A stretch of DNA of 64,000 nt from Haplodiscus bocki. Lineage: Eukaryota. This document shows positions 6,992 through 62,230 of the stretch, one piece after another. The stretch covers positions 107,508,001 to 107,572,000 of the forward strand of contig OZ296650.1 in NCBI GenBank assembly GCA_965655095.1. The letters are read 5' to 3'. How positions within the stretch are numbered: the first letter of the stretch is position 1; every line of letters begins with the position of its first letter. The translations under genes were made by a program, and so were the position numbers. The notes beneath the pieces are model-generated. The model saw nothing but the letters and a program-made list of their open reading frames with translations. It searched no databases and had not been told where the DNA came from.

Positions 6992-6997
6992 TACTGC

Positions 6998-21684: not shown

Positions 21685-22123
21685 ATTGAAATTATTCTTA
21701 TAATTGATCTGAAAATGAATTTAGTTTAACATCTATTGTCGCATGCATTTGACCAAAGATATACTTTTCTGAAATAGCTTCTTTCAACTTGACTGGTTAC
21801 GACGAATTGGGTCGTGTAGTTGCAATACTCGCGATTAATTTTTTTAGTAATGTAAGCACCAGGTCAAAATAGAAAAGAGCAAATATCCCTGTAAGATGAG
21901 ACTGTACGACCAAACTGCTTTGATGAATTCCACCTTCAAACGAGGGAATTAGGCTTATACTTAATTATTATTATGAGGAATTTTTGATATTTCCTTCAGT
22001 GCCTTCCCTCGAGTTCAAGTTTATGCTCAAATTATTTTTCAGTTGCGTGCCATGTTCTTATATTCATCTCTTGAATCCCATGAATAATCCCATTTACTAC
22101 ATCACCCTTACAACACATCGCTG

Positions 22124-22494
22124 ATGCAACCTCTTTACAGTGAAAGTAGCGAAGAAAAGCCGACGAACGGATCTCTGGAAAAACGCGAGAGACAGAAGCA
22201 AAATGACGTTATCATTCCATCTGATTCTATTCTGAAATCAGTCACTCGGTCAATTGAGTGTGCGGTGTGCCTGGAAAGATTACGGATAGAAGACAACCGA
22301 GTTCTGCCATGTCAACATACATACCATTACGGGTGTCTCGAGTTGACCTTGGCACGTGAAGGCGAACTTAGATGTCCAGAGTGCAGAAGACTTTCAGATG
22401 TGTATCTGGATGACTTATTGCCCAATTATACTCTAAATAAAATTTTGGAAAGTCTTCCATTAGATCAACATACCTCGACCACGGACATAAAAAG
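22124..22494 (+). CDS. SH3RF1: SH3RF-like exon 1 (RING domain)
   Basis: Closely matches the POSH N-terminal RING pattern ECPVCLERL..KVLPCQHTFC..C...ELRCPECR. Confidence 0.85.
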
Positions 22495-28400: not shown

Positions 28401-31400
28401 TGTTTTCTCAGGTGATTCTCTACAAGATTCTTTTGCAAAAAGACTGAAGGAGACAAAATTCACCCGCGAAAAGATTCACGCAATCTTGGGATTGAACTGC
28501 GAAAACCATGTGAATCCTCATTGGTGAAAAAAATGAGAGTTATCGAAACAATCGCGGTGAAATCTAAGACGACGGTTGATACGTTTTTAGTGCTCCAAAG
28601 GGGTTATCTTTTGATTATATATCACATGACTACGTTCACGATAATGCACAAGTAGCTCAGATGGTACAACCATTTGCTATGGTTCTGAAGTTTGAGGGTT
28701 CGAATCCGAAAGCCGGCAAGAGTTTATTCTCCAAAATAGATTAACAGCAGGGAAAGTCTGAACAACAGTGAAATCGGTTTTTTAGCACCGTATAGTTGCA
28801 AGTATTTATCAATTAATTCGACAATGGATTGCAAACAGCTGCATTTCAAGATAGTGACAATAACTCGCTCTTTTAACAACTTTGGTTTCAATTTATTTGA
28901 CACATCATCAAGGAGAAAAATAAACCATTGGACTCTGATACGTTCGACTACGACCAACACGACTATTTATCATCTGACGGTTCGCCGGAATATGACGGTT
29001 TTTGTCTGAACGACTGTTTGTTTCTTCACTTTAGACACAAAAGGGGTTGCTTGCATTTGCCCATACTCATATGAAGGTCGAAGGTGTGATAAGTATATGA
29101 GGTAAAAGGTAAACACAGCACTATAGACCCATTTCATCGAGTAAAACGTGCCTTAGCTGTCGCAGAACTTTCATTATCTTCTGTCTGATAACGAAAAACC
29201 GATTTTGAATTTCTTTGTTAGTTCGCAATAAAAACAACTCGGGGAGGTACAGATGTCTCGTTCCGAGATTACTATGAGGAATCTCAGAGTTGAAAACAGA
29301 AATGAGGACAACAGAATTCGCTTCGGAACGTGTAAGAAACTTTCTTATTGGCTTATGCAATCAACTTTACCCATTGCTCGATATTGAAATTTTAAAGAGG
29401 GCATGTCCACCATTTATATCGGCGAGTTCTGATTGGTTGTTCAAAGGGTCTAGAACCTGTCGACTTTTCTGTTTCTTGCAAGCCGTAGCAAAGTTGACAG
29501 CAAATTATAGTGAAGTCTTTGGATAGAACCTTACGAGCAATCGACGGTCAATTTATTTTATTTAGCAATTTCAATCAGAATTCTACACCGAGAACTCTTT
29601 ACTTCTTTGTCATGCTAACACCTCAAACAGTTATTGATTTCGAGGGCTTTCGTTTTTTAAATCAACTGTTCACTATCAAAGAGTTATCTGTTCGGAGTTT
29701 TGACTATAACGAAACAATTCTCCTGAAGCCAGCTTATCCAATCCAAATAGTCTGTCAAGGCACAGAAAAGTTTTACTTGGGTTACGAATAATATACACAG
29801 TTTGAACTGGGACTCTCGAATTTACGAATATTCCTTCTCTACTGTTTCTTTCTGAGCTTGAAAATCCGTTTCCCAAACATCATTCAGTTACGCCGAAGGT
29901 AACGAAAAGTTGTTGTTTCTACGAAACTTCTTCAGCCAGGTCATTGATTTGGATAATCTTTTATGTCCCAAAGCGTCCGATTTCCAGCAGAACTGGGCCC
30001 ATTTGTCTCAATTACCAAGCTTTTTTTTCGAGACATTATTGCTCACGGGAGAAATCAAACTTATTTCATCTTTGGCTAAGTTAGTGTCAGCAGAACGCTT
30101 ATGTCTACTGCTTCCCAAAACAAAAAAAACTAGGATAACTTATTCCTCACCCTGTCCCCGAGTTTAACCATATCAGTATCAAAAACCAAAGAGGTCATTA
30201 TAAAGAAAACACTGAAAACATTACGATTGAACTCGTGAAAGGAAAGTTTCGACAAGTTGGATTGCATGAATTATTGCGAAAGGCAGTCATCCATTCATCT
30301 TATGCTGATTTCTTTCAGCTGAAGTCGAGTACCGATTCCATTCACTCTTCTCTGAACTTAATAGGAAATCATGTCAATTGCCCGATTGAAGCAGCTGATG
30401 AAAGACAACAACATTAAGACTCTTAACCTTCCGCCACTTCCTAAACCTACAATTCTATCTGGTAAAGAGGATCCCCGGTTGCCCGAGCGAATCTTGAATG
30501 AGCTAAAGACAGAGACGACATTGCCGAAATTGCTGTTTTCCTGAACACGTCTAGAAACCGAAAGAAGCAGTAGAGTAACTCTGAATTAGTGCGATGATTC
30601 TAATATTTGTCTTTTACATATTCGTTGAGTTCCAATATGACCGAATCAGGTCCTACAGTTTTTTGTCTACCTTCGCTTGTGAAAGCGACCGGTTTGACAA
30701 ATGAAAGAGAAGAACGCGCATATACTGAAGCATTGGCGAAACAAGAAGTAAAAGAAAGTTTCCTGAAGAATTTTATGTAACTGTAGCGCAGATGAAGTGA
30801 AATTTCTCTGTGAATGCGCCCTGGATTTAGTTAACGGTAATATTCCTTAGTCGATCGCGTAGTCATCTATGAAAAAGGGCGGAAAGTAGCGTGCAATGCA
30901 AAGACATGTGACAAGAAAAGACGACGAATTCTTACCTCTAACAAAGCGATCAAATTGATCCGGGAGGAGATCACTTGTCCAGTGGTCTGATAAAGGAAAT
31001 GAGTTCAAGGGAGCTTTCAAAAAGTTCTGTTAAAGCAAAAACATTGACACTTACACCACAAAAACTGAAGCGAAATCGGCATTCGCAGAGTGGAATATTC
31101 GATCTCCCAAAAGATCATTTACAAACATTTGGAGAACAGATGGTTTTCTCGCTTCATAAACGACTTGCAGTCTTAACACAATCAATTATCGAATCAATCG
31201 CGTAACAGGATTGGCAGCCATCAAGGTCTCCGCGTAACATGTAACAAACTGGGCTACACAGATAGCGCAACAGTTGAGTTGATTGGTCCGAAAATCAAAC
31301 TGGAAACCAGGAGACAAAGTTCGAATAGCGAAGGAAGATGTGCCGTTCAATAAAGGGTACAAACAACGGTTCACTGACGAAATCTTCCAGATTACTGGAA

Positions 31401-34400
31401 TTGCTACCTTCAACCTTCCCACTTTTTTGCTGGGTGACTCTAAAAGAGGAGACATTCAACGGAAGTTTTGTGAGCCAGAGTTGACAAAAACTCGTTAGAA
31501 ATGGATGAATTTGACATATATTTAGAGTCAGCCGGTTCAACGGAAACTTATCAACAAAACACAATGACATGCTTGCGAAACCTGCTCACAGAACCTTTAC
31601 AACTAGAAGGAGATTGGAGAGTGGCTTTGGCAGAAATATTTTCCCCAAAGAGTATCAAGAATGTTTCCACCATAGACTACTTCGTATACACACCAAAAAT
31701 TCCTTTCAATATTTCACCATCAACTGGCAATACAAGCTCAGGAAGCGAAATGGTAGAACATGAAGATTAGTCAAACAATGCAACTGTTTGTGATGGTCAA
31801 TACAAAATTGTCAAGGATGTTGTCGCGCGTTTAGATTTGGCTGTTGCTAAAAGCACGAGGCCCATTGTTAATTCTAGCACTGAAGAAAGCGGTGTAGAGT
31901 TCAACTTTGCAGATGGTTATGGAATAAGTCTTCATGACAGAAGTCTTTTTGCTGTATTGAAGTCAAGGGAGTGCCGTATCTCAACCGAGATGGGTGTTTT
32001 ACTGGTAACAATGAGAAAGTGAAGAAGCAAACATAACCAATCAATGGTAATTATCCGGCAGACTTTACAACAGGAACCAACATTTTCGTTCACTATGATA
32101 TCCTTGAGCTCCACCATACAGCTGGAACTAAAGCACCTGATCTCCCTGTCATTAATACAGAAAGACGTCTAACAAACGGTAACCTACAAATCACGACTGC
32201 AACGAAACATAAATCGTTTGTAGAAGTGCAGTTTAAGAAGCTAGTTTTGGACGCAGTCCGGGAAATATGTATTGAATTAGTTGCAGGGTCTGAAGGCTAC
32301 GTCCCACTTGTCGTAATCAGTCGTGTTGCGATATCATTAAAGTTTCTTTAAGTTCTAAAACTGCAGTCTTATTTTTCCTGGCCCGCTTTCATGCCTCACT
32401 TATCGGGCCACTTAAGACAGAGAGAAAGCGGTTTGGGATTCTTAGCCGCTGGAGTTGGACGGGTTGCGTTACCTTTCGCAATAAAAGTACTTCTACCAGC
32501 TGTCTAATCAATAGGGAAGGAGTAACTACCGCAATTCATGGATGTAACCACGAAAAAAATCTCCCAAATAAGCAGTGAAATCAGCTGTGAAAAGAACAGC
32601 AGAAGCAAATCGGAAGAAGTGCAATAATCAGGAAGAGTAGGCCTGTGAAAAGAAACAGAGAAACAGTAGACGAAAAAACAAGCTACAGAGAAGTGGCGCA
32701 AATATCTGTTCACGAGTAAAAAATGTTACTAACGTTTTAACCGTTGAAGCACCACGCAGTTCATTGGATACTTTTGATCGTCCCCTTTTTTTAAATTACC
32801 TTCAATACATCATTCGAGCAGAAAATTGCTCCAGTGTTTGCTGAAAATGGACCCACACTGCAGTTTGAAGTAGTTGGAGATGGAACGAATTTCATCGATT
32901 CACCTGCCTCAGTGAAATGTAGGATTCTCAGACCTAATGGTGACAAACTGCTATACGATGCAACTAATGCTGCGGCAACTAAATAAACATTCTTTGTCAA
33001 TAGTACTTTACATTCTCTTTTCTCTGGGTGTAGTATTACTGCGAATAGCATCAAAAACTCTGCTAGTGGCACGTACGCCCAAAAAGCTCTCATTGAGACA
33101 GAATTTTCACACAACAAGCAAGCAAAACCTACTTGGTTGAAATGTCAGGGATATCCCTATGAAGATCAGCCTGATGACTACCAAATTAGTTTTCACCGCA
33201 AGGACAGCTGAAGCGTGGGAGTCCGCAGATGACTTTCATTGGAAGAATTGCGTCGCATTTTTTTAATCTGATGATAAACACCTGATAAGTGGAGCTACAC
33301 TGTGATTTTCGTTCCTCAGAAACCGAATTGAATGTGCAATAAATCACGATGATGAAACAAGAATATAAGCTCGAGATTGCAAGCCAATTTATTTATTCGA
33401 AAAATGACTGAGTGACAATGTTCGCTCAGCAATTGGGACTACATTAACCAAAACCCCTGCTCTTCACCGTTATACTGAGATCATACCCAAAATGTTTCCC
33501 ATTTCCACAGTGGTGCAGCGTTGGAGTCATGAAGATGTTTTCGCCAGGGAGCCCATTCCAAGGTCTGCAATAGCTATCACAACAAATAAGGCTTTTTCGG
33601 AAGCTAAGCGCATAAATCCTTTCCATTTCCCGAAATTCAATCTGATCAGCATTACAGTTCATCGTAATGGTTATCTTTTTGCCGGAACTCCACTCCAAAT
33701 AGAATGATAAGAGACAGTACTATAATTCGCTCAAAGCTCTCGTTTTTACATAACATGATAATGGAGTTCCTTACAGCAACTGTGTTAATCAGGATATTTT
33801 ACTGTTCGACTTAACCAGCACACAACAAGCGTCATATGATTATCTTTACCCACATATGTCAAAGGGATCCATTTCGATTAGCTCAAGGTTTTCAGGACAA
33901 ATGGCGAACAGTGTAGAAGTGTTTTTCCCAGGTGAACGGTCTTCTGCTGTTTACCTTGACTCTTCTCAGAAGGTTTCCACGAATATCTTCTTGAACACAA
34001 AGCTGGAAACCAAGCGTTGATGAATGGTACCCAGTTTTTACTACAGATTACGAAGTGTAGGTACCTGAGACATAGATTCGTGGTTGTGTTCTTTATAGAC
34101 ACTTTTCCTATCCTACTCATTGAGAACGCATCCTTTAATGTGAATCTGAAAATTCTGATGAGGAAGGGAAGCATTGGCTTTTATTAAGTAAGAAAGACGG
34201 AGTCTGTCTGTTCGGTGACGCATTGGGCTGACGCTGGGCGCCTATTCAAAAACCTCTTCAACCACCTACATCGAATTCATGTGGACTTATTGTATAAACA
34301 TTGCTCATTTTATTTTCAGTGGTTACTACCCTGTGATGCCGCTGTTCGATGATGAGCGCTATTTAGGATTTGTAAAACTCTCAAACTTTTCATTTATCTT

Positions 34401-37400
34401 CGCTCTCGTTAAATTTAATAATTTTTCGTTATCTTTTTTTTTCAATACAGGATGAATGAAAATCAAAAGCTAGCATTTCATTGTTTATAGCACTAAAGCC
34501 AGAAATGAAGATATCAGCAATCCTGTAAATTGAGGCTGCATGTTGACCATCAAGTACCAGGTTTAGTCTACTGAGAAGAACTGGAGACAAGTCGCTGGTT
34601 TTTGCTGATCTTTTATTTCTGTTTCTCAGTACGGGGACTCGTTTGAGTATTCGTTTTGTGTTGGACAAACGGGCTCCTGTCCAAATTCCTGTTTTATGTC
34701 ACTGCTCGATTAATTTTTTTCAAATGTTTCACCGTTCAACTTCAGATAACTAGCGGTGGGTATCATAGCCGAGAAAGTTGAGTGTAAGCATGACACAGCG
34801 TACCCGTTTCCTCGCTTTTGAAATTTGGACTTTGTTTCCAAGAGAAGTATTTTGCGGTTTTGCTCAATGTCACTGTATTTGTTTTTCTCAGTGTCAGCCA
34901 AAAGCGCAACAGATGTCGTTTCCAAAGTCTTTACCCTCACGCTGTTGTTCAAAACTAATATGATACCGATAGTTTTTCTCAAACGTCTTGAGAAAATCGG
35001 GCGTTTGTTCGTACATTGCCTCAAGGATTTTCCGAATCTGAAAAGAATTATTTATTGGAGCTACACTGTGATTTTCGTTCCTCAGAAAACGATCTGAATG
35101 GGCAATAACTCACGATGATGAAGCAAGAATATAAGCTCGAGATTGCAAGCTAACGTATATATTCGAAAATTGACAGTGAGTGACAATGTCTGCTCAGCAA
35201 TTGGGACTACATCAAGCAAAATCCCTGCTCTTTACCGTTATACTGAGACCATACCCAAAATCTCTCTCATTTCCACAGTGGTGCAGCGTTGGAGTCACGA
35301 GGATGTATTCGCCAGGTAGCCCATTCGAAGGTTTGAATTAGCTATGACAACAAATGAAGCTTTTCCGGAAGCTGAGCGCATAAATCCTTTCCATTTCCCG
35401 AAATTCAATCTGAACAGCATTACAGTTCATCGTAATGGTTATCTTTTTGCCGGAACTCCACTCCAAACAGAATGATAAGAAACAGTACTCTAATTCTCTC
35501 AAAGCTCTGGTTTTTGGATAACATGGTAATGCAGTTCCTTACAGCGACTGTGTTAATCACGATTTTCTACTGTTCGACTTAACCAGCACACAACAAGCGT
35601 CATATGATTGTCCTTACCCACATATGGCAAATGGATCCATTTCGATTAGCTTATGGTTTTCAGCACAACTGGCGAAAAGTGTAGAAGTGTTTTTCCCAGG
35701 TGAACGGGCTTCTGCTGTTTACCTTGACTCTTCTCGGAAGGTTTCCACGAATATCTTCTTGAACTCAAAGCTGGAAACCAAGCGTTGAGGGATAGTGCCC
35801 AAATTTTACTACAGATTACGAAGTGTAGGTACCTGAGACATAGGTTCGTGGATGTGTTCTCTATGGATACCTTTCCTATCCTACTCAACGAGAACGCATA
35901 CGTTATTGTGAATTCCGAATCTTCTGAAGAGGAAGGGAAGCATTGGCTTTTAATAAGTAAGAAAGACGGAGTCTGTCTGTTCGGTGACCCATTGGGCTTA
36001 CGCTGGGCGCCTATTCAAAAACCTCTTCAACCGCCTACATCGAATTTAGGTGGACTTTATTGTATAAACGTTGCTCCTTTTTTTTTCAGTGGTTACTCAC
36101 CTGTAATGCCGCTGTTCGATGATGAGCGCTATTTAGGATTTGTAAAACTCTCAAACTTTTCATTTATCTTCGCTCTCGTTAAATTTATTAATTTTTCGTT
36201 ATCTTTTTTTTTCAATACAGGATGAATGAAAATGAAAAGCTAGCATTTCATTGTTCATAGCACTAAAGCCAGAAATGAAGATATCAGCAATCCTATAAAT
36301 TGAGGCTGCATGTTGACCATCAAGTACCAGGTTTAGTCTACTGAGAAGAACTGGAGACAAGTCGCTGGTTTTTGCTGATCTTTTATTTCTGTTTCTCAGT
36401 ACGGGGACTCGTTTCAGTATTCGTTTTGTGTTGGACAAACGGGCTCCTGTCCAAATTCCTGTTTTACGTCACTGCTCGATTAATTTTTTTCACATGTTTC
36501 ACCGTTCAACTTCAAATAACTAGCGGTGGGTATCATAGGCGAGAAAGTTGAGTATAAGCATGACACAGCGTACCCGTTTCCTCGCTTTTGAAATTTGGAC
36601 TTTGTTTCCAAGAGAAGTATATTGTGATTTAGCTCAATAACACTGTATTTGTTTTTCTCAGTGTCAGCCAAAAGCACAACAGATGTCGTTTCCAAAGTCT
36701 TTACCCTCACGCTGTTCTTCAAAACTAATATGATACCGATAGTTTTTCACAAACGTCTTGAGAAAATCAGGCGTTTGTTCGTACTTAGCCTCAAGCATTT
36801 TCAGAATCTGAAAAGAAATATTTCGTGGAGCTACACTGTGATTTTCGTTCCTCAGAAAACGATCTGAATGGGCAATAACTCACGATGATGAAGCAAGAAT
36901 ATAAGCTCGAGATTGCAAGCTAACGTATATATTCGAAAATTGACAGTGAGTGACAATGTCTGCTCAGCAATTGGGACTACATCAAGCAAAATCCCTGCTC
37001 TTTACCGTTATACTGAGACCATACCCAAAATCTGTCTCATTTCCACAGTGGTGCAGCGTTGGAGTCACGAGGATGTATTCGCCAGGTAGCCCATTCGAAG
37101 GTTTGAAATAGCTATGACAACAAATGAGGCTTTTCCGGAAGCTGAGCGCATAAATCCTTTCCATTTCCCGAAATTCAATCTGAACAGCATTACAGTTCAT
37201 CGTAATGGTTATCTTTTTGCCGGAACTCCACTCCAAACAGAATGATAGGAAACAGTACTCTAATTCGCTCAAAGCTCTGGTTTTTGGATAACATGGTAAT
37301 GCAGTTCCTTACAGCGACTGTGTTAATCACGATATTCTACTGTTCGACTTAACCAGCACGCAACAAGCGTCATGATTATCTTTACCCACATATGGCAAAT

Positions 37401-40400
37401 GGATCCATTTCGATTAGCTCAAGGTTTTCAGGACAACTGGCGAAAAGTGTAGAAGTGTTTTTCCCAGGTGAACGGGCTTCTGCTGTTTACCTTGACTCTT
37501 CTCGGAAGGTTTCGACGAATATCTTCTTGAACTCAAAGCTGAAAACCAAGCGTTGAGGGATAGTACCCAAATTTTACTACAGATTACGAAGTGTAGGTAC
37601 CTGAGACATAGGTTCGTGGATATGCTCTCTATGGATACCTTTCCTATCCTACTCAACGAGAACGCATACGTTATTGTGAATTCCGAATCTTCTGAAGAGG
37701 AAGGGAAGCATTGGCTTTTAATAAGTAAGAGAGACGGAGACTGTCTTCGGTGACCCATTGGGCTTACGCTGGGCGCCTATTCAAAACGTATTCAACCGTC
37801 TACATCGAATTTAGGTGGACTTTATTGTATAAACGTTGCTCTGTTTTTTTCAGTGGTTACTACCCTGTAATGCCGCTATTCGATGATGAGCGCTATTTAG
37901 GATTTGTAAAACTCTCAAACTTTTCATTTATCTTCGCTCTCGTTAAATTTAATAGTTTTTCGATATCTTTTTTTTTCAATACAGGATGAATGAAAATGAA
38001 AAGCTAACATTTTTTATAGCACTAAAGCCAGAAAAGAAGATATCAACAATCCTATAAATTGAGGCTGCATGTTGACCATCAAGTATCAGGTTTAGTCTAC
38101 TGAGAAGAACTGGAGACAAGTCGCTGGTTTTTGCTGATCTTTTATTTCTGTTTCTCAGTACGGGGACTCGTTTGAGTATTCGTATGTGTTGGACAAACGG
38201 GCTCCTGTCCAAATTCCTGTTTTATGTCACTGCTCGATTAATTTTTTTCAAATGTTTCACCGTTCAACTTCAAATAACTAGCGGTGGGTATCATAGGCGA
38301 GAAAGTTGAGTGTAAGCATGACACAGCGTACCCGTTTCCTCGCTTTTGAAATTTGGACTTTGTTTCCAAGAGAAGTATTTTGCGGTTTTGCTCAATGTCA
38401 CTGTATTTGTTTTTCTCAGTGTCAGCCAAAAGCACAACAGATGTCGTTTCCAAAATCTTTACCCTCACGCTGTTCTTCAAAACTAATATGATACCGATAG
38501 TTTTTCACAAACGTCTTGAGAAAATCGGGCGTTTGTTCGTACATAGCCTCAAGCATTTTCCGAATCTGAAAAGAATTTTTTAGTGGAGCTACACTGTGAT
38601 TTTCGTTCCTCAGAACCGACCTGAATGTGCAATAACTCACGATGATGAAACAAGAATATAAGCTCGAGATTGCAAGCCAACTTATATAATCGAAAATTGA
38701 CAGTGAGTGACAATGTCTGCTCAGCAGTTGGGACTACATTAACCAAAATCCCTGTTCTTTACCGTTATACTGAGACCATACCCAAAATCTCTCATTTGCA
38801 CAGTGTTGCAGCGTTGGAGTCACGAGGATGTATTCGCCAGGTAGCCCATTCGAAGGTTTGCAATAGCTATGACAACAAATGAGGCTTTTCCGGAAGCTGA
38901 GCGCATAAATCCTTTCCATTTCCCGAAATTCAATCTGAACAGCATTACAGTTCATCGTAATGGTTATCTTTTTGCCGGAACTCCACTCCAAACAGAATGA
39001 TAAGAAACAGTACTCTAATTCGCTCAAAGCTCTGGTTTTTGGATAACATGGTAACGCAGTTCCTTACAGCGACTGTGTTAATCACGATATTCTACTGTTC
39101 GACTTAACCAGCACACAACAAGCGTCATATGATTATCTTTACCCACATATGGCAAATGGATCCATTTCGATTAGCTTATGGTTGTCAGCACAACTGGCGA
39201 AAAGTGTAGAAGTGTTTTTCCCAGGTGAACGGGCTTCTGCTGTTTACCTTGACTCTTCTCGGAAGGTTTCCACGAATATCTTCTTGAACTCAAAGCTGGA
39301 AACCAAGCGTTGAGGGATAGTACCCAAATTTTACTACAGATTACGAAGTGTAGGTACCTGAGACATAGGTTCGTGGATGTGCTCTCTATGGATACCTTTC
39401 CTATCCTACTCAACGAGAACGCATACGTTATTGTGATTTCCGAATCTTCTGAAGAGGAAGGGAAGCATTGGCTTTTAATAAGTAAGAAAGACGGAGTCTG
39501 TCTGTCCGGTGACCCATTGGGCTTACGCTGGGCGCCTATTCAAAACATATTCAACCGCCTACATCGAATTTAGGTGGACTTTATTGTATAAACGTTGCTC
39601 ATTTTTTTTCAGTGGTTCCTACCCTGTAATGCCGCTATTCGATGATGAGCGCTAATTAAGATTTGTAAAACTCTCATAAACTTTTTATTTATCTTCGCTC
39701 TCGTTAAATTTAATAATTTTTCAATTTCTTTTTTTTTCAATACAGGATGAATGAAAATGAAAAGCTAGCATTTCATTGTTTATAGCACTAAAGCCAGAAA
39801 TGAAGATATCAACAATCCTATAAATTGAGGCTGCATGTTGGCCATCAAGTATCAGGTTTAGTCTACTGAGAAGAACTGGAGACAAGTCGCTGGTTTGTGC
39901 TGATCTTTCATTTCTGTTGCTCACTACGGGGACTCGTTTGAGTATTCGTATGTGTTGGACAAACGGGCTCCTGTCCAAATTCCTGTTTTATGTCACTGCT
40001 CGATTAATTTTTTTCAAATGTTTCACCGTTCAACTTCAAATAACTAGCGGTGGGTATCATAGGCGAGAAAGTTGAGTGTAAGCATGACACAGCGTACCCG
40101 TTTCCTCGCTTTTGAAATTTGGACTTTGTTTCCAAGAGAAGTATTTTGCGGTTTTGCTCAATGTCACTGTATTTGTTTTTCTCAGTGTCAGCCAAAAGCA
40201 CAACAGATGTCGTTTCCAAAGTCTTTACCCTCACGCTGTTCTTCAAAACTAATATGATACCGATAGTTTTTCACAAACGTCTTGAGAAAATCGGGCGTTT
40301 GTTCGTACATAGCCTCAAGCATTTTCCGAATCTGAAAAGAATTTTTTAGTGGAGCTACACTGTGATTTTCGTTCCTCAGAACCGACCTGAATGTGCAATA

Positions 40401-43400
40401 ACTCACGATGATGAAACAAGAATATAAGCTCGAGATTGCAAGCCAACTTATATAATCGAAAATTGACAGTGAGTGACAATGTCTGCTCAGCAGTTGGGAC
40501 TACATTAACCAAAATCCCTGTTCTTTACCGTTATACTGAGACCATACCCAAAATCTCTCATTTGCACAGTGTTGCAGCGTTGGAGTCACGAGGATGTATT
40601 CGCCAGGTAGCCCATTCGAAGGTTTGCAATAGCTATGACAACAAATGAGGCTTTTCCGGAAGCTGAGCGCATAAATCCTTTCCATTTCCCGAAATTCAAT
40701 CTGAACAGCATTACAGTTCATCGTAATGGTTATCTTTTTGCCGGAACTCCACTCCAAACAGAATGATAAGAAACAGTACTCTAATTCGCTCAAAGCTCTG
40801 GTTTTTGGATAACATGGTAACGCAGTTCCTTACAGCGACTGTGTTAATCACGATATTCTACTGTTCGACTTAACCAGCACACAACAAGCGTCATATGATT
40901 ATCTTTACCCACATATGGCAAATGGATCCATTTCGATTAGCTTATGGTTGTCAGCACAACTGGCGAAAAGTGTAGAAGTGTTTTTCCCAGGTGAACGGGC
41001 TTCTGCTGTTTACCTTGACTCTTCTCGGAAGGTTTCCACGAATATCTTCTTGAACTCAAAGCTGGAAACCAAGCGTTGAGGGATAGTACCCAAATTTTAC
41101 TACAGATTACGAAGTGTAGGTACCTGAGACATAGGTTCGTGGATGTGCTCTCTATGGATACCTTTCCTATCCTACTCAACGAGAACGCATACGTTATTGT
41201 GAATTCCGAATCTTCTGAAGAGGAAGGGAAGCATTGGCTTTTAATAAGTAAGAAAGACGGAGTCTGTCTGTTCGGTGACCCATTGGGCTTACGCTGGGCG
41301 CCTATTCAAAAACCTCTTCAACCGCCTACATCGAATTTAGGTGGACTTTATTGTATAAACGTTGCTCCTTTTTTTTTCAGTGGTTACTCACCTGTAATGC
41401 CGCTGTTCGATGATGAGCGCTATTTAGGATTTGTAAAACTCTCAAACTTTTCATTTATCTTCGCTCTCGTTAAATTTATTAATTTTTCGTTATCTTTTTT
41501 TTTCAATACAGGATGAATGAAAATGAAAAGCTAGCATTTCATTGTTCATAGCACTAAAGCCAGAAATGAAGATATCAGCAATCCTATAAATTGAGGCTGC
41601 ATGTTGACCATCAAGTACCAGGTTTAGTCTACTGAGAAGAACTGGAGACAAGTCGCTGGTTTTTGCTGATCTTTTATTTCTGTTTCTCAGTACGGGGACT
41701 CGTTTCAGTATTCGTTTTGTGTTGGACAAACGGGCTCCTGTCCAAATTCCTGTTTTACGTCACTGCTCGATTAATTTTTTTCACATGTTTCACCGTTCAA
41801 CTTCAAATAACTAGCGGTGGGTATCATAGGCGAGAAAGTTGAGTATAAGCATGACACAGCGTACCCGTTTCCTCGCTTTTGAAATTTGGACTTTGTTTCC
41901 AAGAGAAGTATATTGTGATTTAGCTCAATAACACTGTATTTGTTTTTCTCAGTGTCAGCCAAAAGCACAACAGATGTCGTTTCCAAAGTCTTTACCCTCA
42001 CGCTGTTCTTCAAAACTAATATGATACCGATAGTTTTTCACAAACGTCTTGAGAAAATCAGGCGTTTGTTCGTACTTAGCCTCAAGCATTTTCAGAATCT
42101 GAAAAGAAATATTTCGTGGAGCTACACTGTGATTTTCGTTCCTCAGAAAACGATCTGAATGGGCAATAACTCACGATGATGAAGCAAGAATATAAGCTCG
42201 AGATTGCAAGCTAACGTATATATTCGAAAATTGACAGTGAGTGACAATGTCTGCTCAGCAATTGGGACTACATCAAGCAAAATCCCTGCTCTTTACCGTT
42301 ATACTGAGACCATACCCAAAATCTGTCTCATTTCCACAGTGGTGCAGCGTTGGAGTCACGAGGATGTATTCGCCAGGTAGCCCATTCGAAGGTTTGAAAT
42401 AGCTATGACAACAAATGAGGCTTTTCCGGAAGCTGAGCGCATAAATCCTTTCCATTTCCCGAAATTCAATCTGAACAGCACTACAGTTCATCGTAATGGT
42501 TATCTTTTTGCCGGAACTCCACTCCAAACAGAATGATAGGAAACAGTACTCTAATTCGCTCAAAGCTCTGGTTTTTGGATAACATGGTAATGCAGTTCCT
42601 TACAGCGACTGTGTTAATCACGATATTCTACTGTTCGACTTAACCAGCACGCAACAAGCGTCATGATTATCTTTACCCACATATGGCAAATGGATCCATT
42701 TCGATTAGCTCAAGGTTTTCAGGACAACTGGCGAAAAGTGTAGAAGTGTTTTTCCCAGGTGAACGGGCTTCTGCTGTTTACCTTGACTCTTCTCGGAAGG
42801 TTTCGACGAATATCTTCTTGAACTCAAAGCTGAAAACCAAGCGTTGAGGGATAGTACCCAAATTTTACTACAGATTACGAAGTGTAGGTACCTGAGACAT
42901 AGGTTCGTGGATATGCTCTCTATGGATACCTTTCCTATCCTACTCAACGAGAACGCATACGTTATTGTGAATTCCGAATCTTCTGAAGAGGAAGGGAAGC
43001 ATTGGCTTTTAATAAGTAAGAGAGACGGAGACTGTCTTCGGTGACCCATTGGGCTTACGCTGGGCGCCTATTCAAAACGTATTCAACCGTCTACATCGAA
43101 TTTAGGTGGACTTTATTGTATAAACGTTGCTCTGTTTTTTTCAGTGGTTACTACCCTGTAATGCCGCTATTCGATGATGAGCGCTATTTAGGATTTGTAA
43201 AACTCTCAAAATTTTCATTTATCTTCGCTCTCGTTAAATTTAATAGTTTTTCAATATCTTTTTTTTTCAATACAGGATGAATGAAAATGAAAAGCTAACA
43301 TTTTTTATAGCACTAAAGCCAGAAAAGAAGATATCAACAATCCTATAAATTGAGGCTGCATGTTGACCATCAAGTATCAGGTTTAGTCTACTGAGAAGAA

Positions 43401-46400
43401 CTGGAGACAAGTCGCTGGTTTTTGCTGATCTTTTATTTCTGTTTCTCAGTACGGGGACTCGTTTGAGTATTCGTATGTGTTGGACAAACGGGCTCCTGTC
43501 CAAATTCCTGTTTTATGTCACTGCTCGATTAATTTTTTTCAAATGTTTCACCGTTCAACTTCAAATAACTAGCGGTGGGTATCATAGGCGAGAAAGTTGA
43601 GTGTAAGCATGACACAGCGTACCCGTTTCCTCGCTTTTGAAATTTGGACTTTGTTTCCAAGAGAAGTATTTTGCGGTTTTGCTCAATGTCACTGTATTTG
43701 TTTTTCTCAGTGTCAGCCAAAAGCACAACAGATGTCGTTTCCAAAATCTTTACCCTCACGCTGTTCTTCAAAACTAATTTGATACCGATAGTTTTTCACA
43801 AACGTCTTGAGAAAATCGGGCGTTTGTTCGTACATAGCCTCAAGCATTTTCCGAATCTGAAAAGAATTTTTTAGTGGAGCTACACTGTGATTTTCGTTCC
43901 TCAGAACCGACCTGAATGTGCAATAACTCACGATGATGAAACAAGAATATAAGCTCGAGATTGCAAGCCAACTTATATAATCGAAAATTGACAGTGAGTG
44001 ACAATGTCTGCTCAGCAGTTGGGACTACATTAACCAAAATCCCTGTTCTTTACCGTTATACTGAGACCATACCCAAAATCTCTCATTTGCACAGTGTTGC
44101 AGCGTTGGAGTCACGAGGATGTATTCGCCAGGTAGCCCATTCGAAGGTTTGCAATAGCTATGACAACAAATGAGGCTTTTCCGGAAGCTGAGCGCATAAA
44201 TCCTTTCCATTTCCCGAAATTCAATCTGAACAGCATTACAGTTCATCGTAATGGTTATCTTTTTGCCGGAACTCCACTCCAAACAGAATGATAAGAAACA
44301 GTACTCTAATTCGCTCAAAGCTCTGGTTTTTGGATAACATGGTAACGCAGTTCCTTACAGCGACTGTGTTAATCACGATATTCTACTGTTCGACTTAACC
44401 AGCACACAACAAGCGTCATATGATTATCTTTACCCACATATGGCAAATGGATCCATTTCGATTAGCTTATGGTTGTCAGCACAACTGGCGAAAAGTGTAG
44501 AAGTGTTTTTCCCAGGTGAACGGGCTTCTGCTGTTTACCTTGACTCTTCTCGGAAGGTTTCCACGAATATCTTCTTGAACTCAAAGCTGGAAACCAAGCG
44601 TTGAGGGATAGTACCCAAATTTTACTACAGATTACGAAGTGTAGGTACCTGAGACATAGGTTCGTGGATGTGCTCTCTATGGATACCTTTCCTATCCTAC
44701 TCAACGAGAACGCATACGTTATTGTGATTTCCGAATCTTCTGAAGAGGAAGGGAAGCATTGGCTTTTAATAAGTAAGAAAGACGGAGTCTGTCTGTCCGG
44801 TGACCCATTGGGCTTACGCTGGGCGCCTATTCAAAACATATTCAACCGCCTACATCGAATTTAGGTGGACTTTATTGTATAAACGTTGCTCATTTTTTTT
44901 CAGTGGTTCCTACCCTGTAATGCCGCTATTCGATGATGAGCGCTAATTAAGATTTGTAAAACTCTCATAAACTTTTTATTTATCTTCGCTCTCGTTAAAT
45001 TTAATAATTTTTCAATTTCTTTTTTTTTCAATACAGGATGAATGAAAATGAAAAGCTAGCATTTCATTGTTTATAGCACTAAAGCCAGAAATGAAGATAT
45101 CAACAATCCTATAAATTGAGGCTGCATGTTGGCCATCAAGTATCAGGTTTAGTCTACTGAGAAGAACTGGAGACAAGTCGCTGGTTTGTGCTGATCTTTC
45201 ATTTCTGTTGCTCACTACGGGGACTCGTTTGAGTATTCGTATGTGTTGGACAAACGGGCTCCTGTCCAAATTCCTGTTTTATGTCACTGCTCGATTAATT
45301 TTTTTCAAATGTTTCACCGTTCAACTTCAAATAACTAGCGGTGGGTATCATAGGCGAGAAAGTTGAGTGTAAGCATGACACAGCGTACCCGTTTCCTCGC
45401 TTTTGAAATTTGGACTTTGTTTCCAAGAGAAGTATTTTGCGGTTTTGCTCAATGTCACTGTATTTGTTTTTCTCAGTGTCAGCCAAAAGCACAACAGATG
45501 TCGTTTCCAAAGTCTTTACCCTCACGCTGTTCTTCAAAACTAATATGATACCGATAGTTTTTCACAAACGTCTTGAGAAAATCGGGCGTTTGTTCGTACA
45601 TAGCCTCAAGCATTTTCCGAATCTGAAAAGAATTTTTTAGTGGAGCTACACTGTGATTTTCGTTCCTCAGAACCGACCTGAATGTGCAATAACTCACGAT
45701 GATGAAACAAGAATATAAGCTCGAGATTGCAAGCCAACTTCTATAATCGAAAATTGACAGTGAGTGACAATGTCTGCTCAGCAGTTGGGACTACATTAAC
45801 CAAAATCCCTGTTCTTTACCGTTATACTGAGACCATACCCAAAATCTCTCATTTGCACAGTGTTGCAGCGTTGGAGTCACGAGGATGTATTCGCCAGGTA
45901 GCCCATTCGAAGGTTTGCCATAGCTATGACAACAAATGAGGCTTTTCCGGAAGCTGAGCGCATAAATCCTTTCCATTTCCCGAAATTCAATCTGAACAGC
46001 ATTACAGTTCATCGTAATGGTTATCTTTTTGCCGGAACTCCACTCCAAACAGAATGATAAGAAACAGTACTCTAATTCGCTCAAAGCTCTGGTTTTTGGA
46101 TAACATGGTAACGCAGTTCCTTACAGCGACTGTGTTAATCACGATATTCTACTGTTCGACTTAACCAGCACACAACAAGCGTCATATGATTATCTTTACC
46201 CACATATGGCAAATGGATCCATTTCGATTAGCTTATGGTTGTCAGCACAACTGGCGAAAAGTGTAGAAGTGTTTTTCCCAGGTGAACGGGCTTCTGCTGT
46301 TTACCTTGACTCTTCTCGGAAGGTTTCCACGAATATCTTCTTGAACTCAAAGCTGGAAACCAAGCGTTGAGGGATAGTACCCAAATTTTACTACAGATTA

Positions 46401-49400
46401 CGAAGTGTAGGTACCTGAGACATAGGTTCGTGGATGTGCTCTCTATGGATACCTTTCCTATCCTACTCAACGAGAACGCATACGTTATTGTGATTTCCGA
46501 ATCTTCTGAAGAGGAAGGGAAGCATTGGCTTTTAATAAGTAAGAAAGACGGAGTCTGTCTGTCCGGTGACCCATTGGGCTTACGCTGGGCGCCTATTCAA
46601 AACATATTCAACCGCCTACATCGAATTTAGGTGGACTTTATTGTATAAACGTTGCTCATTTTTTTTCAGTGGTTCCTACCCTGTAATGCCGCTATTCGAT
46701 GATGAGCGCTAATTAAGATTTGTAAAACTCTCATAAACTTTTTATTTATCTTCGCTCTCGTTAAATTTAATAATTTTTCAATTTCTTTTTTTTTCAATAC
46801 AGGATGAATGAAAATGAAAAGCTAGCATTTCATTGTTTATAGCACTAAAGCCAGAAATGAAGATATCAACAATCCTATAAATTGAGGCTGCATGTTGGCC
46901 ATCAAGTATCAGGTTTAGTCTACTGAGAAGAACTGGAGACAAGTCGCTGGTTTGTGCTGATCTTTCATTTCTGTTGCTCACTACGGGGACTCATTTGAGT
47001 ATTCGTTTTGTCTTCTGGAAAAACCGGCTCTTACCCAAATTCCTGTTTTATGTCACTGCTCGATTAATTTTTTCAAATATTTCACCGTTCAACTTTAAAT
47101 AACTAGCGGTGGGTATCATAGGCGAGAAATTCGAGTATAAGCATGACACAGCGTACCCCTTTCCTCGCTTTTGAAATTTGGACTTTGTTTCCAAGAGAAG
47201 ATTATTGTGTTTTCGCTCAATGTCACTGTATTTGTTTTTCTCAGTGTCAGCCAAAAGCACAACAGATGTCGTTTCCAAAGTCTTTACCCTCACGCTGTTG
47301 TTCAAAACTAATATGATACCGATAGTTTTTCACAAACGTCTTGAGAAAATCGGGCGTTTGTTCGTACATAGCCTCAAGCATTTTCCGAATCTGAAAAGAA
47401 TTATTTAGTGGAGCTACACTGTGATTTTCGTTCCTCAGAACCGACCTGAATGTGCAATAACTCACGATGATGAAACAAGAATATAAGCTCGAGATTGCAA
47501 GCCAACTTATATATTTGAAAAATGACAGTGACAATGTTTGCTCAGCAATTGGGACTACATTAAACAAAACCCCTGCTCTTTACCGTTATACTGAGATCAT
47601 ACCCAAAATGTTTCTCATTTCCACAGTGGCGCAGCGTTGTAGTCACGAAGATGTATTCGCCAAGGAGCCCATTCGAAGGTTTGCAATGGCTATGACAACA
47701 AATGAGGCTTTTTCGGAAGCTGAGCGCATAAATCTTTTGCATTTCCCGAAATTCAATCTGAATGGCATTACAATTCATCGTAATGTTTTGATTATCTTTT
47801 TGCCGGAACACCACTCCAAACAGAATGATAAAAAACAGTACTCTAATTCGCTCAAAGCTCTGGTTTTTGGATAACATGGTCTTGGAGTTCCTTACAGCGA
47901 CTGTGTTAATCACGATATTCTACTGTTCGACTTAACCAGCACGCAACAAGCGTCATGATTATCTTTACCCACATATGGCAAATGGATCCATTTCGATTAG
48001 CTTATGCTTTTCAGCACAACTGGCGAAAAGTGTAGAAGTGTTTTTCCCAGGTGAACGGTCTTCTACTGTTTACCTTGACTCTTCTCGCAAGGTTTCCACG
48101 AATATCTTCTTGAACTCAAAGTTGGAAACCAAGCGTTGAGGGATAGTACCCAATTTTTGTTACAGATTACGAAGTGTAGGTACCTGAGACATAGATTTGT
48201 GGATGTGTTCTCTATAGATACCTTTCCTATCCTACTCAACGAGAACACATCCATCATTGTGAATTCCTAAAATTCTGATGAGAAAGGGAAGCATTGGCTC
48301 TTAATAAGTAAGAAAGACGGAGTCTGTGTGTTCGGCGACCTTTTGGGCCTACGCTGGGCGCCTATTCAAAACCTCCTCAACCGCCTACATCGAATTCATG
48401 TGGACTTTATTGTATAGATTTTGCTCATTTTATTTTCAGTGGTCACTACCCTGTGGTACCGCTAATCTACTATGAGCGGTAATTAAGATTTGTAAAACTC
48501 TCATAAACTTTTTATTTATCTTCGCTCTCGTTAAATTTAATAATTTTTCAATATCTTTTTTTTCAATACAGGATGAATGAAAATGAAAAGCTAGCCTTTC
48601 ATTGTTTATAGCACTAAAGCCAGAAATGAAGATATCAACAATCCTATAAAATGAGGCTGCATGCTGACCATCAAGTATCAGGTTTAGTCTACTGAGAAGA
48701 ACTGGAGACAAGTCGCTGGTTTGTGCTGATCTTTCATTTCTGTTGCTCACTACGGGGACTCGTTTGAGTATTCGTTTTGTGTTTTGGAAAAACGGGCTCT
48801 TGTCCAAATTCCTGTTTTTTGTCTTTGCTCGATTATTTTTTTTCAAATGTTTCACCGTTCAACTTTAAATAACTAGCGGTGGGTATCATAGGCGAGAACA
48901 TTGAGTATAAGCATGACACAGCGTACCCCCTTTCCTCGCTTTTGAAATTTGGACTTTGTTTCGAAGAGAAGATTGTGTTTTTGCTCAATGTCACTATTGG
49001 TTTCCCTCAGAGTGTCTACCAAGAGCACAACAGATGTCGTTTCCAAAGTCTTTACCCTCAGGTGGTTCTTCAAAACTAGTATGATACCGAAAAGTTTTCA
49101 CAAACGTCATGAGAAAATCGGGCGTTTGTTTGTACATAGCCTCAAGCGTTTTCGGAAACTGCAAAAAAATTAGTTCAGAATCGGTAACATTCACGAAAAA
49201 AAAATTGGGTTCCGAAAAGAAAATGTTATTGTCATGAAAGAATGAATTGATGAAGGAAATTGTATGTTCACAGGCAAATACTTTCAAGTGAAATATTATA
49301 AAGAGCTACTCTCAGAAGATCACAATCTTCGAATTTGAGAAAGTTGTTCGTTAAATATGTTCTTTCGCTTGATAATTAGCATTACATCATCTTCTTCGGG

Positions 49401-52400
49401 TCCTGGTTGCATTACAATATTTTTTTGTTAGTCAACTGATGGAGCGCAGAAGCAGTGAGTGTTAGTTGTTGATCCGGATAATACACCCTCTTTTCAGATA
49501 ATAAATCCTCATAGTCAACTCCTTTTTTGAAAAGTTTCGGAAGCCAGTTGGTCCCCGTGTTGGGATTTGTCTTGGTTGTAACTCGTATGAGACGCCTCTC
49601 AGTTCTCGAAATATCGATTTAGATGTCCCCAAAATCTTTGTCAGTAGTGGCAAAAAATGGAAGATTCATTTTTTTGAGCAGTTAGCGAAATTGGAGCAGG
49701 AAACGGTTTTCCTGGGAAAGTAAGAAATTGAATGATACGAGGTTTTAAAATAATACCAGATCGAGAATGCTCGATGTATAGGGCGTAAACTTAGAAGGGA
49801 ACCGTTAATTTAGTTTAAAAGCGGTGATATTAATTGGCAAATAAATTGGAAAATAATTATGTCAAAATACTCTGGTAATAGGAGTGTGCAGTGACTTGTT
49901 TTTTTAACTGTAAACAAATATCATCTGTCGCCTACACAAAAACCTTGATTGTGACTAATTGAGACGATCAGGACCATTATTCGTCTTACGACTGGTAACT
50001 TTTTTATAACTACTTGAAACTGGGGGTCTAAGCAATGCATGTAAGCAAACCGTCCAATGTCTGGACATTACATGTAAAGTAAACAAGAACTATTTTCATT
50101 GTGTAACCATTCTAACTTTCCTTTTTTGAAGACTAAATTTTTTTCAATTAATCGTCAAATTCACAACTGGATGCCTCTATAAAAAATTTTTTTCAAGTGA
50201 AGTTTTACTTTCGGTACTACACGAAGCCTAACCTCAAATAAACAAGATTGTAAACGTTTTTTTTCATGAAGTGAAACTGGAGATTCAAATATTCACCAGC
50301 TTTTTTTCTTATGCTTTTATATTTTACGAAACTTGATTTAATAAATCGGTGGTGATTGTCAGAGAAGAAATCAGATGACGAGTGTAGCATCAAAAAATCC
50401 ATATCATTACCCAAAGACACCTTTGGTCTGTTGAAGACCAAGAGCGTCCCACCTAACATTGTTACCAGTTTGGAAGCTGTGGGCCTCGCAGAGGAAAATT
50501 TTCATATACGTTCAATTGTTGACCGTTTCGAATTACCTGTGAGTGTTCGCGAAGTCTTACTCGGTTTCGATTGTGAACACATACCCCTATCCGAGAACCA
50601 TTTGGGTTTATGTTGGACTTCGAAATGTTAGTGGTTTTTGGAGATTGTTAGCAACCCGCAAGCTCCACGTCTGAAAGGAGTAACACCGCCATTTCCATTT
50701 TCAACCCCTCCTTGTCAAGATAGTAATGAGGACAGTCCAGATTTCAATCCGCTTGAAACTCCTGTGAAGTCGAGGCCTTTCTACTCACCAGAATGTCCTC
50801 CGGCACCAGTCAGTCTAAGTTCTCACGCTAAAACAAAAGAAAATGCAACCACTCACGCATAGTTTACAGTAAGTGGATGTCAGTTGAATTTCAATAGACA
50901 GACTTCGAAGAAATCGCGCGTGTGAAGCTAGTCATAGTTAAATTGCAGAATAGTAGAAGTTATGACAACAGAACAAAAGCCATTAGCAAAAGTTTATTTT
51001 TGAGCAAACAAAACGAGAGGTATTTGTTTCAAGGTCAAGACACGACACTATCGCAAACACTCAGAACATCAATGGTTACCCTTTTGATGAGATGACCTAC
51101 TTTTAGCCTGCAGGGCTAGTCAACAAAACAGAGATCGTAAACGAAATAGGAAAACTTTATTATTTTCTCGAATTTTCAAATTCAATTCAATAATCTCTGC
51201 AACGGAAAATGCGAATAACTGTAATTTTCGCAGCAAAACATTTTCTAAGAAGTAAAACTATTTCGGCATCTCCTCAACTTTCATAACATTGGAAAATCGA
51301 AGTCAGGGCAGAGAAACTGCATGGAATGTTCTTTCAAATGTTGCTCTTTGGCAGTAATGACGAAACACGTTGAAGAAAAACATGATACAGCAAAACAGAA
51401 GCTCCGCATTTACTGCAATAGTCTCTTGTCTGATACTAAAACTTTCAATAAACTCTTAGAAGAAGTTCATTGGTTGCCTCCAGTTACACAAACCCAAAAA
51501 TCGCAATGCAAACTACCTCAAGCATCTGCTTTCGATGGTTCAGTGCAGACGTACTTCTTAGAAGCGGATGATGATGATGATTTCTCACAGTTCGTGATGG
51601 ACCGAAAATAAATTATTGATGAGATTATAGAAGAAGCTGTTCAAGCAGAACCGAAAAAAGTGCAGCTAACAGAAGTCAAATTTGAAAAAAAACCTGCCTC
51701 AGAAGTTGAAGACGCTACTGATCTCTTGATTCACGAGAACTCCCAAATGAAAACAGTCTACCCGGGTGAGAGACTCACATGGGAAGGTTTTCTTCACGAT
51801 GTTGAATCAAATGTTATCGATGTCCAGTTTTACTTCCCACGGAAGTGTGTTGGTGCTCAAAGAGATCAATGATCTTTACGTTAAGCTAGTTTCCTACGTC
51901 CCAATTCGAGGTTTATCCTTCCTTGCATTGCCAGGTGACCTTCGAAGCCTGAATTGCCTGTTGAAGATGAGGAATCGGGAAGGCTAAAATTGCTTCCTCT
52001 ATTGTTAAGTGGCAGCGTGGCATTTTCCTTATGCTGAAAGTCTTAATGAAAATGTCGGCTGTCGAATGAGAATGAACCCAGAAACATTTAGTCCTTTTAA
52101 TCCATTGACACGCCGACCACTTGGCGATGTCGACGTGACGATGGCTTTCGACCAATTTCCAAAGCTTGAAAAGCTGAACAAAATTAAAGTCAGTGTATTC
52201 CGTTACCAAAAGAAAGATCTCATTCCACTGCGATTATCGAAACCAGAGGATTTGCCATTCATGTTAGACCTTCTTCATGGCGATGGTCAAGCTTACCATA
52301 ATGTTTTAACCAAAGACTTGAAAATTTTAGTCACCAATTTGAAACAACAAATTCCACGATCCTGTAGCAAAATATGCCGTAGCTGCTTGAATGCTTGTTA

Positions 52401-61154: not shown

Positions 61155-61230
61155 GTTAGTTGACTTCAGCTTAATTTTTGCACATTCTAACAGAAAGGAA
61201 GACAGAAACCAGCTTATGATTAGTTTTCTC

Positions 61231-61600
61231 AAACTTGCGCAAGCAAGTGTTTTACACAGGCTTTTGCGTACTTCTTTTCGATCTGTTCACAACTCGCATT
61301 TGTGCCTATTTTCTGATGGTGCCCAGATTTTGCTCATGCGCTCTCGCTTTCTTGCAAAAACTTGTTCGGGTGCTGTTGCAGATTTGCACAAATTTCTTCA
61401 CGTGGCCTCTTGTCCAGCGAGCGCGCTTGTTTTAATTCAACATAGAGCCAATTAACTGCTGTAGTCGTTCGTACTTGTTATGTATATGAATTTATGAGAA
61501 ATAACTGAGTTAATTGAATTTGTTTAATCAGTAATTTTTGTAGTACCGTACCCCCTTAAAAAATCAGTTATACTTGTTCGATTTGTTCACTATTATTTTT
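61231..61600 (+). mobile_element. HINE-like repeat, copy f (3' hairpin lost)
   Basis: ACTTGCGCAAGCAAGTGT 5' palindrome; body homologous to 15391-15783. Confidence 0.55.
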
Positions 61601-61973: not shown

Positions 61974-62230
61974 TTTTTTTCGTTTTAATAGAACATTGAT
62001 GAGATTTGAGCCTCTAGCTGATCAAGGAGGTATCCCTAGGAGTCAGCTTTTTGCGTGCCATTTCAGAAATATTTGTGGTCACTAATTGGGACTGCACATA
62101 TTTTTTTTCGTTTTAATAGAACATTGATGAGATTTGAGCCTCTAGCTGATCAAGGAGGTATCCTTAGGAGTCAGCTTTTTGCGTGCCATTTCAGAAATCT
62201 TTGTGGTCACTAATTGGGACTGCACATATT
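61974..62230. repeat. Two-copy 128-bp tandem duplication
   Basis: CGTTTTAATAGAAC...GGGACTGCACATA at 61981 and 62109, nearly identical and bounded by T-runs. Confidence 0.9.

Follow-up and report, generated by a model that had tools for sequence, protein, structure and literature searches.

How a kilobase-scale tandem array comes to lie inside a virus-like mobile element, and whether such an array serves any purpose, is the question raised by a 64,000-nucleotide stretch of the Haplodiscus bocki genome (assembly GCA_965655095.1, contig OZ296650.1, positions 107,508,001 to 107,572,000; hereafter the window, numbered from its first base). An earlier note on this DNA had described a macrosatellite born from viral capsid and protease genes of a Polinton, caught while forming a higher-order repeat (HOR) and possibly serving as a small-RNA template against related viruses. 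We found that the array lies within a decayed Maverick/Polinton, and we consider it likely that neutral local growth of the repeat, following the death of the viral genes, explains its existence.

Self-BLAST of the window and alignment of the units resolved a head-to-tail array at 33288–49174 (15,887 bp, 55% of the element), which consists of nine units of 1758–1770 bp, here numbered U1 to U9 (Table 1). This confirmed the nine ~1.76-kb units, the total of ~15.9 kb and the share of over half the element that had been reported. The off-diagonal matches showed 89.7–96.3% identity over 1.8–14 kb, and the units are 0–10% apart; at the two ends of the array, U1 and U9 are 110–154 substitutions away from the inner units and 167 from one another. 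The array was missed by Tandem Repeats Finder because its period limit was 500, and no further copy of the array was detected in the 64-kb window. The array thus has what characterizes a macrosatellite, namely head-to-tail monomers longer than 500 bp that derive from part of a mobile element.

Each unit carries the 3′ half of a major capsid gene, as had been claimed, but the other contents differ from the earlier description: the convergent open reading frame (ORF) is included whole and not by its end only, and the protease is not whole, because all nine units lack ~18 residues that are present in 11 of 11 aligned relatives. The capsid fragment upstream retrieved 53 relatives among 250 candidates, the best of which, P0001 (439 aa), is 78% identical and aligns along 32731–34017 and, from residue ~194 on, into every unit. 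A structure model of P0001 (predicted local distance difference test score, pLDDT, of 64) gave its top matches with the capsids of Sputnik, iridovirus, Paramecium bursaria chlorella virus 1 (PBCV-1) and mavirus (E 5e-14 to 2e-12), and also matched adomavirus, virophage and adintovirus entries. By this model, an intact relative of the capsid has the double jelly-roll fold. The capsid was identified through its fold because the intact relatives have no Pfam match either; Pfam likewise returned no family for U1, U2 and the 5′ half of the capsid gene, scanned in six stop-masked readings.

For the protease gene, 12 relatives were found among 12 candidates, one of them being the window's own protein. 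Matches to Peptidase_C5 (adenovirus protease) were weak (P0062, E 3e-4; P0055, 0.02; the window fragment, 0.28); two of the four relatives scanned matched, P0054 and P0065 did not, and a PDB sequence search with the protease fragment gave no match. The protease His, Asp and Gln are kept in 10–11 of 11 relatives, and the Cys in 7 of 11. U2 and U5 have a stop-free frame over most of the protease, yet the deletion is present in both, the aligned start residue is missing, and the position of the cysteine conserved in most relatives is changed. A 61-aa protease fragment that is identical in U4, U7 and U8 (39388, 44679 and 46445, plus strand) is also found in the protein database on a 47,441-base contig, which is shorter than the window; a second assembly of the locus may lie behind this database copy. 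The convergent ORF has two relatives among 141 candidates and no Atlas match above 0.87, and the units cover residues 1–210 of its relative P0216 (2–210 in U9).

The breaks in the capsid and protease genes were mapped by frameshift-aware alignment to their relatives. Five capsid breaks are common to all nine units (stops at aa 199 and 351; frameshifts near 217/218, 224 and 334), and seven more lie in the unique 5′ half of the gene. Both of the inactivating stop motifs quoted in the earlier note are present in every unit, at aa 199 and 351, but the claim of shared stops does not extend to the convergent ORF, in which two stops and one frameshift are common to U1–U8 and absent from U9. These breaks would have arisen after the first duplication and then passed to the inner units. 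U9 presumably escaped them because the outermost 3′ end is not replaceable by crossovers, which is the expected pattern.

Divergence among the units appears neutral. The pooled ratio of non-synonymous to synonymous variation (pN/pS) was 0.90 (43.5 synonymous and 135.5 non-synonymous variants; p=0.47 against neutrality), and pairwise values ranged from 0.69 to 1.77 in the eight pairs computed. Residues vary between units equally at conserved (25/83) and variable (42/154) positions (p=0.65), in contrast to five intact relatives, which differ from P0001 at 2–4 of 77–78 conserved but 46–67 of 166–169 variable positions. Each unit has 61–68 mismatches to P0001 over 237 residues, that is, ~73% protein identity to the closest intact capsid. 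Mismatches at 36 of the 237 residues are common to all units and evenly spread (10/83 conserved, 26/154 variable; p=0.35), which is the pattern of decay preceding duplication; provided that P0001 stands near the progenitor, about half of the decay would be older than the first duplication. Taken together, the breaks present in 9/9 units, the protease deletion and the neutral divergence imply that amplification came after gene death, in agreement with the earlier proposal.

We then consider how the array grew. In a mosaic test on 80 informative sites in seven distinct units, neighbour incompatibility was 0.06, compared with 0.37 after shuffling, and none of 2000 shuffles was as low. The units are therefore mosaics, which supports the unequal crossing-over suggested before. 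U5 indeed switches from U4-like to U2-like, as had been noticed, and all 25 sites at which U2 and U5 differ lie in the 5′ half; however, U5 is not the sole chimera, since U4 and U7 are also U8-like at the 5′ side and U3/U6-like at the 3′ side. The near-identity at an offset of 5291 bp was reproduced as well, with U4 and U7 identical and U3 and U6 differing at 4 sites. Among phase-shifted matches, the best are the 5291-bp three-unit block (Table 1) and a one-unit block (43450–45226 compared with +1766), which shows 4 substitutions in 1777 bp, only one of them common to U3 and U6; older phase-shifted matches lie at 3–4%. The divergences form a ladder of 0.11%, 0.23%, 3.2%, 4.7% and 10%. At 9 of the 11 residues that could be polarised, both U1 and U9 agree with the intact relative against the inner units, which may reflect an edge effect of array turnover.

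The statement that the array was caught while forming a HOR appears overstated. The blocks are more alike than the monomers (0.11% between blocks, whereas U2, U3 and U4 differ by 49–65 substitutions, ~3–4%), as in a HOR, but instead of many reiterations there are about two copies (5345 bp at the 5291-bp offset). One recent three-unit duplication accounts for both copies, so the HOR amounts to one event. A toy calculation for an array of 5–6 units, with assumed weights, put the probability of an offset of at least two units at 0.47–0.67, and a single three-unit misalignment suffices for the HOR-like pattern.

The element that contains the array spans 28309–56938 (28,630 bp), or 14.5 kb without the eight extra units. 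Its terminal repeats agree at 53 of 62 bases in three ungapped blocks (alignment score 67; the best of 100 shuffles scored 44), and beyond ~74 bp only scattered short blocks were found. Mavericks are defined by an AGT-type end motif and a 6-bp target-site duplication in the text consulted of PMC8097293. The (AGT)2//(ACT)2-type motif is present here, with AGTAGG at the left (one mismatch) and ACTACT at the right, although the detectable repeat is short, at ~74 bp. The element has a single pair of ends and a single target-site duplication, and no end-like repeats occur inside it. Tandem insertion of whole elements is ruled out by the absence of internal ends together with the single target-site duplication. 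A 200-bp palindrome (28319–28517) includes the left terminal repeat; both of its arms match the right end, which is single-armed.

The hallmark genes of Mavericks were taken from parts of PMC11161782. The integrase retrieved 694 relatives at E<=0.001, and 13 of the 16 scanned match PF00665 (rve); the broken copy itself has no direct Pfam match. The ORF between integrase and capsid had no Pfam match in the two frames scanned and, from its position, we guess it to be the minor capsid (penton) gene. In the right arm, the fragment 53284–53757 is the only one with a family match (Atlas score 0.96; 10 of the 10 best family matches agree). That Atlas cluster has PF03175 on 22% of its members, the recognition value of 2200 is below the tool's mark of 2300, and the fragments of this region gave no direct Pfam polymerase match. 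The region is a probable protein-primed DNA polymerase B (PolB) gene. Between the subterminal minisatellite and the right terminal repeat, ~1.1 kb (55761–56867) matches nothing else in the window and is possibly a nested insertion. Capsid fold, protease, integrase, end motifs and target-site duplication support the assignment of the element to the Mavericks/Polintons and bear out the Polinton origin claimed earlier. The ends of the element, its target-site duplication and its position in an intron are new additions to that description.

The whole element lies within a predicted intron of 32.9 kb (28139–61058), and the flanking exons join in phase, completing an SH3 domain that is split between them. 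On this evidence, with splicing predicted from sequence only, the Maverick/Polinton would be an intronic insertion within a RING-SH3-SH3 host gene. The RING-finger ORF at 22088 probably belongs to the same gene as the SH3 exons. We take the host gene to resemble SH3RF/POSH, a name suggested by the domain order.

We propose the following history, in which the order of events was chosen by parsimony. A Maverick/Polinton of ~14.5 kb inserted into an intron of the RING-SH3-SH3 gene and decayed there as a pseudogene, with capsid, protease, integrase and convergent ORF broken and only short open stretches left in the polymerase region. In mid-decay, a one-off tandem duplication, presumably by a repair-type mechanism, would have fused the mid-part of the capsid gene with the DNA immediately preceding the start of the convergent ORF, which is the junction observed between units. 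The resulting long direct repeats then fed unequal crossing-over and gene conversion and so produced the mosaic units. A recent one-unit slip in an array of at least five older units (in the simplest case U1, U2, U3, U8 and U9) would have given the U4 type as a sixth unit, and a recent three-unit slip with U5 as its junction would have brought the number to nine. The array codes for nothing functional, its sequence gives no sign of another role, and most likely it is selectively neutral intronic DNA.

Several points weigh against this history. Gene conversion could in principle have spread the shared breaks, although the aa-199 stop lies only 16 bases from the left edge of the array. Neutrality was tested at the protein level, and a function of the DNA or RNA would give the same pN/pS; moreover, neutrality allows but does not explain the persistence of the array until its end units were 10% apart. 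With regard to the element, the unique arms contain no intact Walker A motif and no Pfam match for a packaging ATPase, and no family could be assigned to a minor capsid among the scanned frames; on the minus strand near 49550–50400, a resemblance to an ATPase may be present. In addition, of the six differences between the blocks, five occur in the right copy alone (42115–46493; U6, U8) and none clearly in the left alone (p=0.06), which is slightly odd for a symmetric duplication and might be due to chance, allelic origin or assembly. If the three-unit block were an assembly error or a join of two haplotypes, the true array would have six (or five) units and the remaining account would stand. 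The concentration of differences in one copy, the 99.89% identity of the blocks and the identity of U4 with U7 would fit this possibility, and a haplotype join is indistinguishable from an unequal crossover. However, the six differences are all substitutions, with zero indels over 12 homopolymers of at least 6 bases, which we infer to be unlike typical long-read consensus error; there is a second young duplication, with a breakpoint of its own and 4 differences in 1777 bp, and units that are 3–10% apart cannot be assembly copies. An artefact of this kind is therefore unlikely in our view.

Host transcription might also make the array a multi-copy source of PIWI-interacting or small interfering RNAs (piRNA/siRNA) that silence related active Mavericks, so that it would be kept or favoured. 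A silencing target may exist, with intact relatives in multi-member clusters (44 for capsid P0001, 8 for protease P0054 and 24 for ORF P0216), and the array falls within what is probably a transcription unit, which would yield RNA antisense to the convergent ORF. Read-through from the host gene would nevertheless run in the sense direction for both capsid and protease, leaving the convergent ORF alone to be read antisense, and the units share only ~73% protein identity with the closest intact capsid. The array repeats head to tail and has no long inverted repeat for double-stranded RNA, the only palindrome being one of 33 bp in two units. Rfam over 28000–62000 returned no match, and the other DNA of the window is ordinary and gene-bearing, with no obvious cluster of transposon fragments. 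CpG is not depleted in the array (observed/expected 0.93, level with the rest of the element and host DNA at 0.92–0.98), and 125 transitions stand against 126 transversions. Methylation-driven decay was considered separately and is unsupported by the CpG ratio and the transition/transversion balance. The defence role raised in the earlier note, with no hairpin, no CpG depletion, no Rfam match and a sense orientation, is thus unsupported rather than refuted, and we consider it very unlikely. A repeat born in the virus, as a defective or concatemeric replication product or through repeated insertion before or during integration, would explain why it is wholly within the element, and double insertion is documented as a source of transposon tandems in the consulted part of 10.1101/158386. 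Against such an origin, the decay common to all units is of the neutral type and must predate the duplication, the junctions are internal-to-internal without element ends, and divergences of 0.1–10% do not point to one moment; we hold it to be exceedingly improbable. We give next to no weight to the idea that a centromere-type HOR array is starting to form here, or that the capsid and protease genes were domesticated as a cluster: the period-three structure and the stop-free frames of U2 and U5 across most of the protease are set against two HOR copies in 16 kb of intronic DNA, and against a deletion, a missing start residue and an altered conserved-Cys position in those same proteases, with a pN/pS of 0.90. 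Even taken jointly, a viral-stage origin and domestication are highly improbable.

Table 1 Positions of the array, the surrounding element and the host exons in the window.
Feature	Position	Strand	Remarks
RING-finger ORF	22088..22510	+	zf-RING_2 E 9.2e-9; probably an exon of the same gene, located upstream
Host exon, SH3 domain 1 (end) and SH3 domain 2 (start)	27910..28138	+	SH3_2 E 2.4e-10; GT donor directly 3′
Left target-site duplication copy, AGCGTC	28303..28308		Perfect 6-bp match; chance ~3e-4
Left terminal inverted repeat	28309..28382	+	Starts AGTAGG; within larger palindrome reaching 28517
Broken retroviral-type (rve) integrase, C-terminal part mapped	30968..31495	+	3 stops, 2 frameshifts
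Broken conserved ORF between integrase and capsid	31501..32350 (end approximate)	+	41% identity over 63 aa to C-terminal part of P0067
Full-length broken major capsid gene, original place	32731..34017	+	5′ half unique, 3′ half is start of unit 1; 13 breaks compared with P0001
Unit 1 (U1)	33288..35053	+	1766 bp; capsid aa ~194-439, protease 34020-34377, convergent ORF 35028-34407 (minus)
Unit 2 (U2)	35054..36823	+	1770 bp
Two-copy 5291-bp block	35858-41202 and 41149-46493 (within 35858..46493)	+	6 substitutions, no indels, 5345 bp
Unit 3 (U3)	36824..38581	+	1758 bp
Unit 4 (U4)	38582..40347	+	1766 bp; 5′ U8-like, 3′ U3-like, switch 39925-39935
Unit 5 (U5)	40348..42114	+	1767 bp; three-unit duplication junction; switch 41149-41202
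Unit 6 (U6)	42115..43872	+	1758 bp; 4 substitutions compared with U3
Unit 7 (U7)	43873..45638	+	1766 bp; identical to U4
Unit 8 (U8)	45639..47406	+	1768 bp
Unit 9 (U9)	47407..49174	+	Most divergent, 133-167 substitutions compared with others; runs into unique right arm
Broken protein-primed DNA polymerase B region (probable)	51200..55200 (approximate bounds)	+	Longest stop-free stretch 188 aa
Subterminal minisatellite	55381..55758		27 bp x 14 copies; tandem repeat search
Right terminal inverted repeat	56868..56938	-	Last bases ACTACT
Right target-site duplication copy, AGCGTC	56939..56944		Same 6 bp as left flank
Host exon, remainder of SH3 domain 2	61059..61160	+	SH3_9 E 3.6e-4; CAG acceptor directly 5′

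Outside the element, the window contains a single uninterrupted ORF of 638 aa (3501–5417, plus strand) with a hAT dimerisation domain (Pfam, E 6.5e-8). This hAT transposase looks intact, and a 23-bp inverted pair (2767–2789 and 5501–5523) may represent its ends. A 341-aa open stretch at 752–1777 (plus strand) encodes a farnesyl diphosphate synthase whose nearest PDB entries are vertebrate enzymes and whose matched part is intronless. We also observed a MITE-like (miniature inverted-repeat transposable element) fold-back element of ~820 bp (6172–6994; 79% self-complementary overall), a 367-aa ORF (16859–17962, plus strand) for which a Pfam scan gave no significant family, and a 128-bp tandem repeat in two copies of 97% identity (61974–62235). 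Dispersed repeats of 250–400 bp with 70–80% identity are located at 7900–8297, 13713–14087 and 15393–15795, and further copies of the family at 19558–19962, 22726–23498 and 61233–61600.

In the sections consulted of the publications cited in the following comparisons, degraded endogenous Mavericks/Polintons (adintoviruses) are the norm in animal genomes and mostly mutational fossils (PMC8097293, PMC9683012, PMC8502044). The present element resembles animal Mavericks in its end motif, 6-bp duplication, double jelly-roll capsid, adenain-like protease, rve integrase and probable PolB. It differs from published Mavericks in its internal kilobase tandem, none being described in the main text of the same three papers. 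The closest precedent is provided by the human MaLR (MSTA/THE1) long terminal repeat (LTR) megasatellites, which comprise 25 arrays on 9 chromosomes, with six-monomer HORs in pericentromeric arrays and also small arrays of 4–8 units and ~15–22 kb (Warburton et al. 2008, PMC2588610). Both consist of kilobase monomers of dead element fragments that include internal ORFs, with unequal crossing-over and HORs. However, the MaLR arrays derive from LTR retroelements and the Haplodiscus bocki array from a DNA-virus capsid/protease module; unlike the former, the latter is confined, as far as seen, to one locus, has a two-copy three-mer and still lies inside its parent element in an intron. Among Drosophila transposon tandems (R1, Bari1), internal-to-internal tandems are common and usually low-copy (McGurk and Barbash, 10.1101/158386), and theory cited there holds that unequal exchange, above all when it is infrequent, arranges variants as HORs. 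Those tandems arise mainly through double insertion of whole or end-bearing elements, in contrast to the purely internal unit and single insertion seen here.

According to the portions consulted of a 2025 review (PMC12692304), short euchromatic arrays embedded in elements are satellite seeds, and monomers longer than 500 bp make macrosatellites. Like those seeds, the present array is short and derives from a tandemised part of a mobile element, and we regard it as a short element-embedded macrosatellite seed. The sources named in those portions are cut-and-paste transposons, Helitrons, MITEs, Penelope, short and long interspersed elements (SINEs and LINEs) and LTR elements, with Mavericks unnamed; likewise, the consulted text of PMC12694884, PMC4992247 and 10.1101/2023.10.06.561300 contains no Maverick-derived satellite. 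Our search, which covered the open-access literature and left subscription journals and supplements outside, found no report of one. The array is thus of a known kind, a mobile-element-derived macrosatellite, and what is new is that Maverick virion genes are the source and that the parent element still surrounds it.

The birth of a satellite is readable here at one locus, from the parent element and its insertion site to the founding junction and the successive crossover breakpoints. Counts of capsid or protease matches would score nine viruses at this locus in place of one, and the element, at 28.6 kb, is about twice its original size. It is decidedly unlikely, in our estimation, that the array is a host-transcribed, still-expanding small-RNA template against intact Mavericks, with the convergent ORF as target, or that its junction has already seeded arrays elsewhere. 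Were small RNAs or dispersal to be demonstrated, this would be a satellite family from DNA-virus virion genes whose parent element and steps of birth are still readable, and tandem amplification would be linked to defence against Mavericks.

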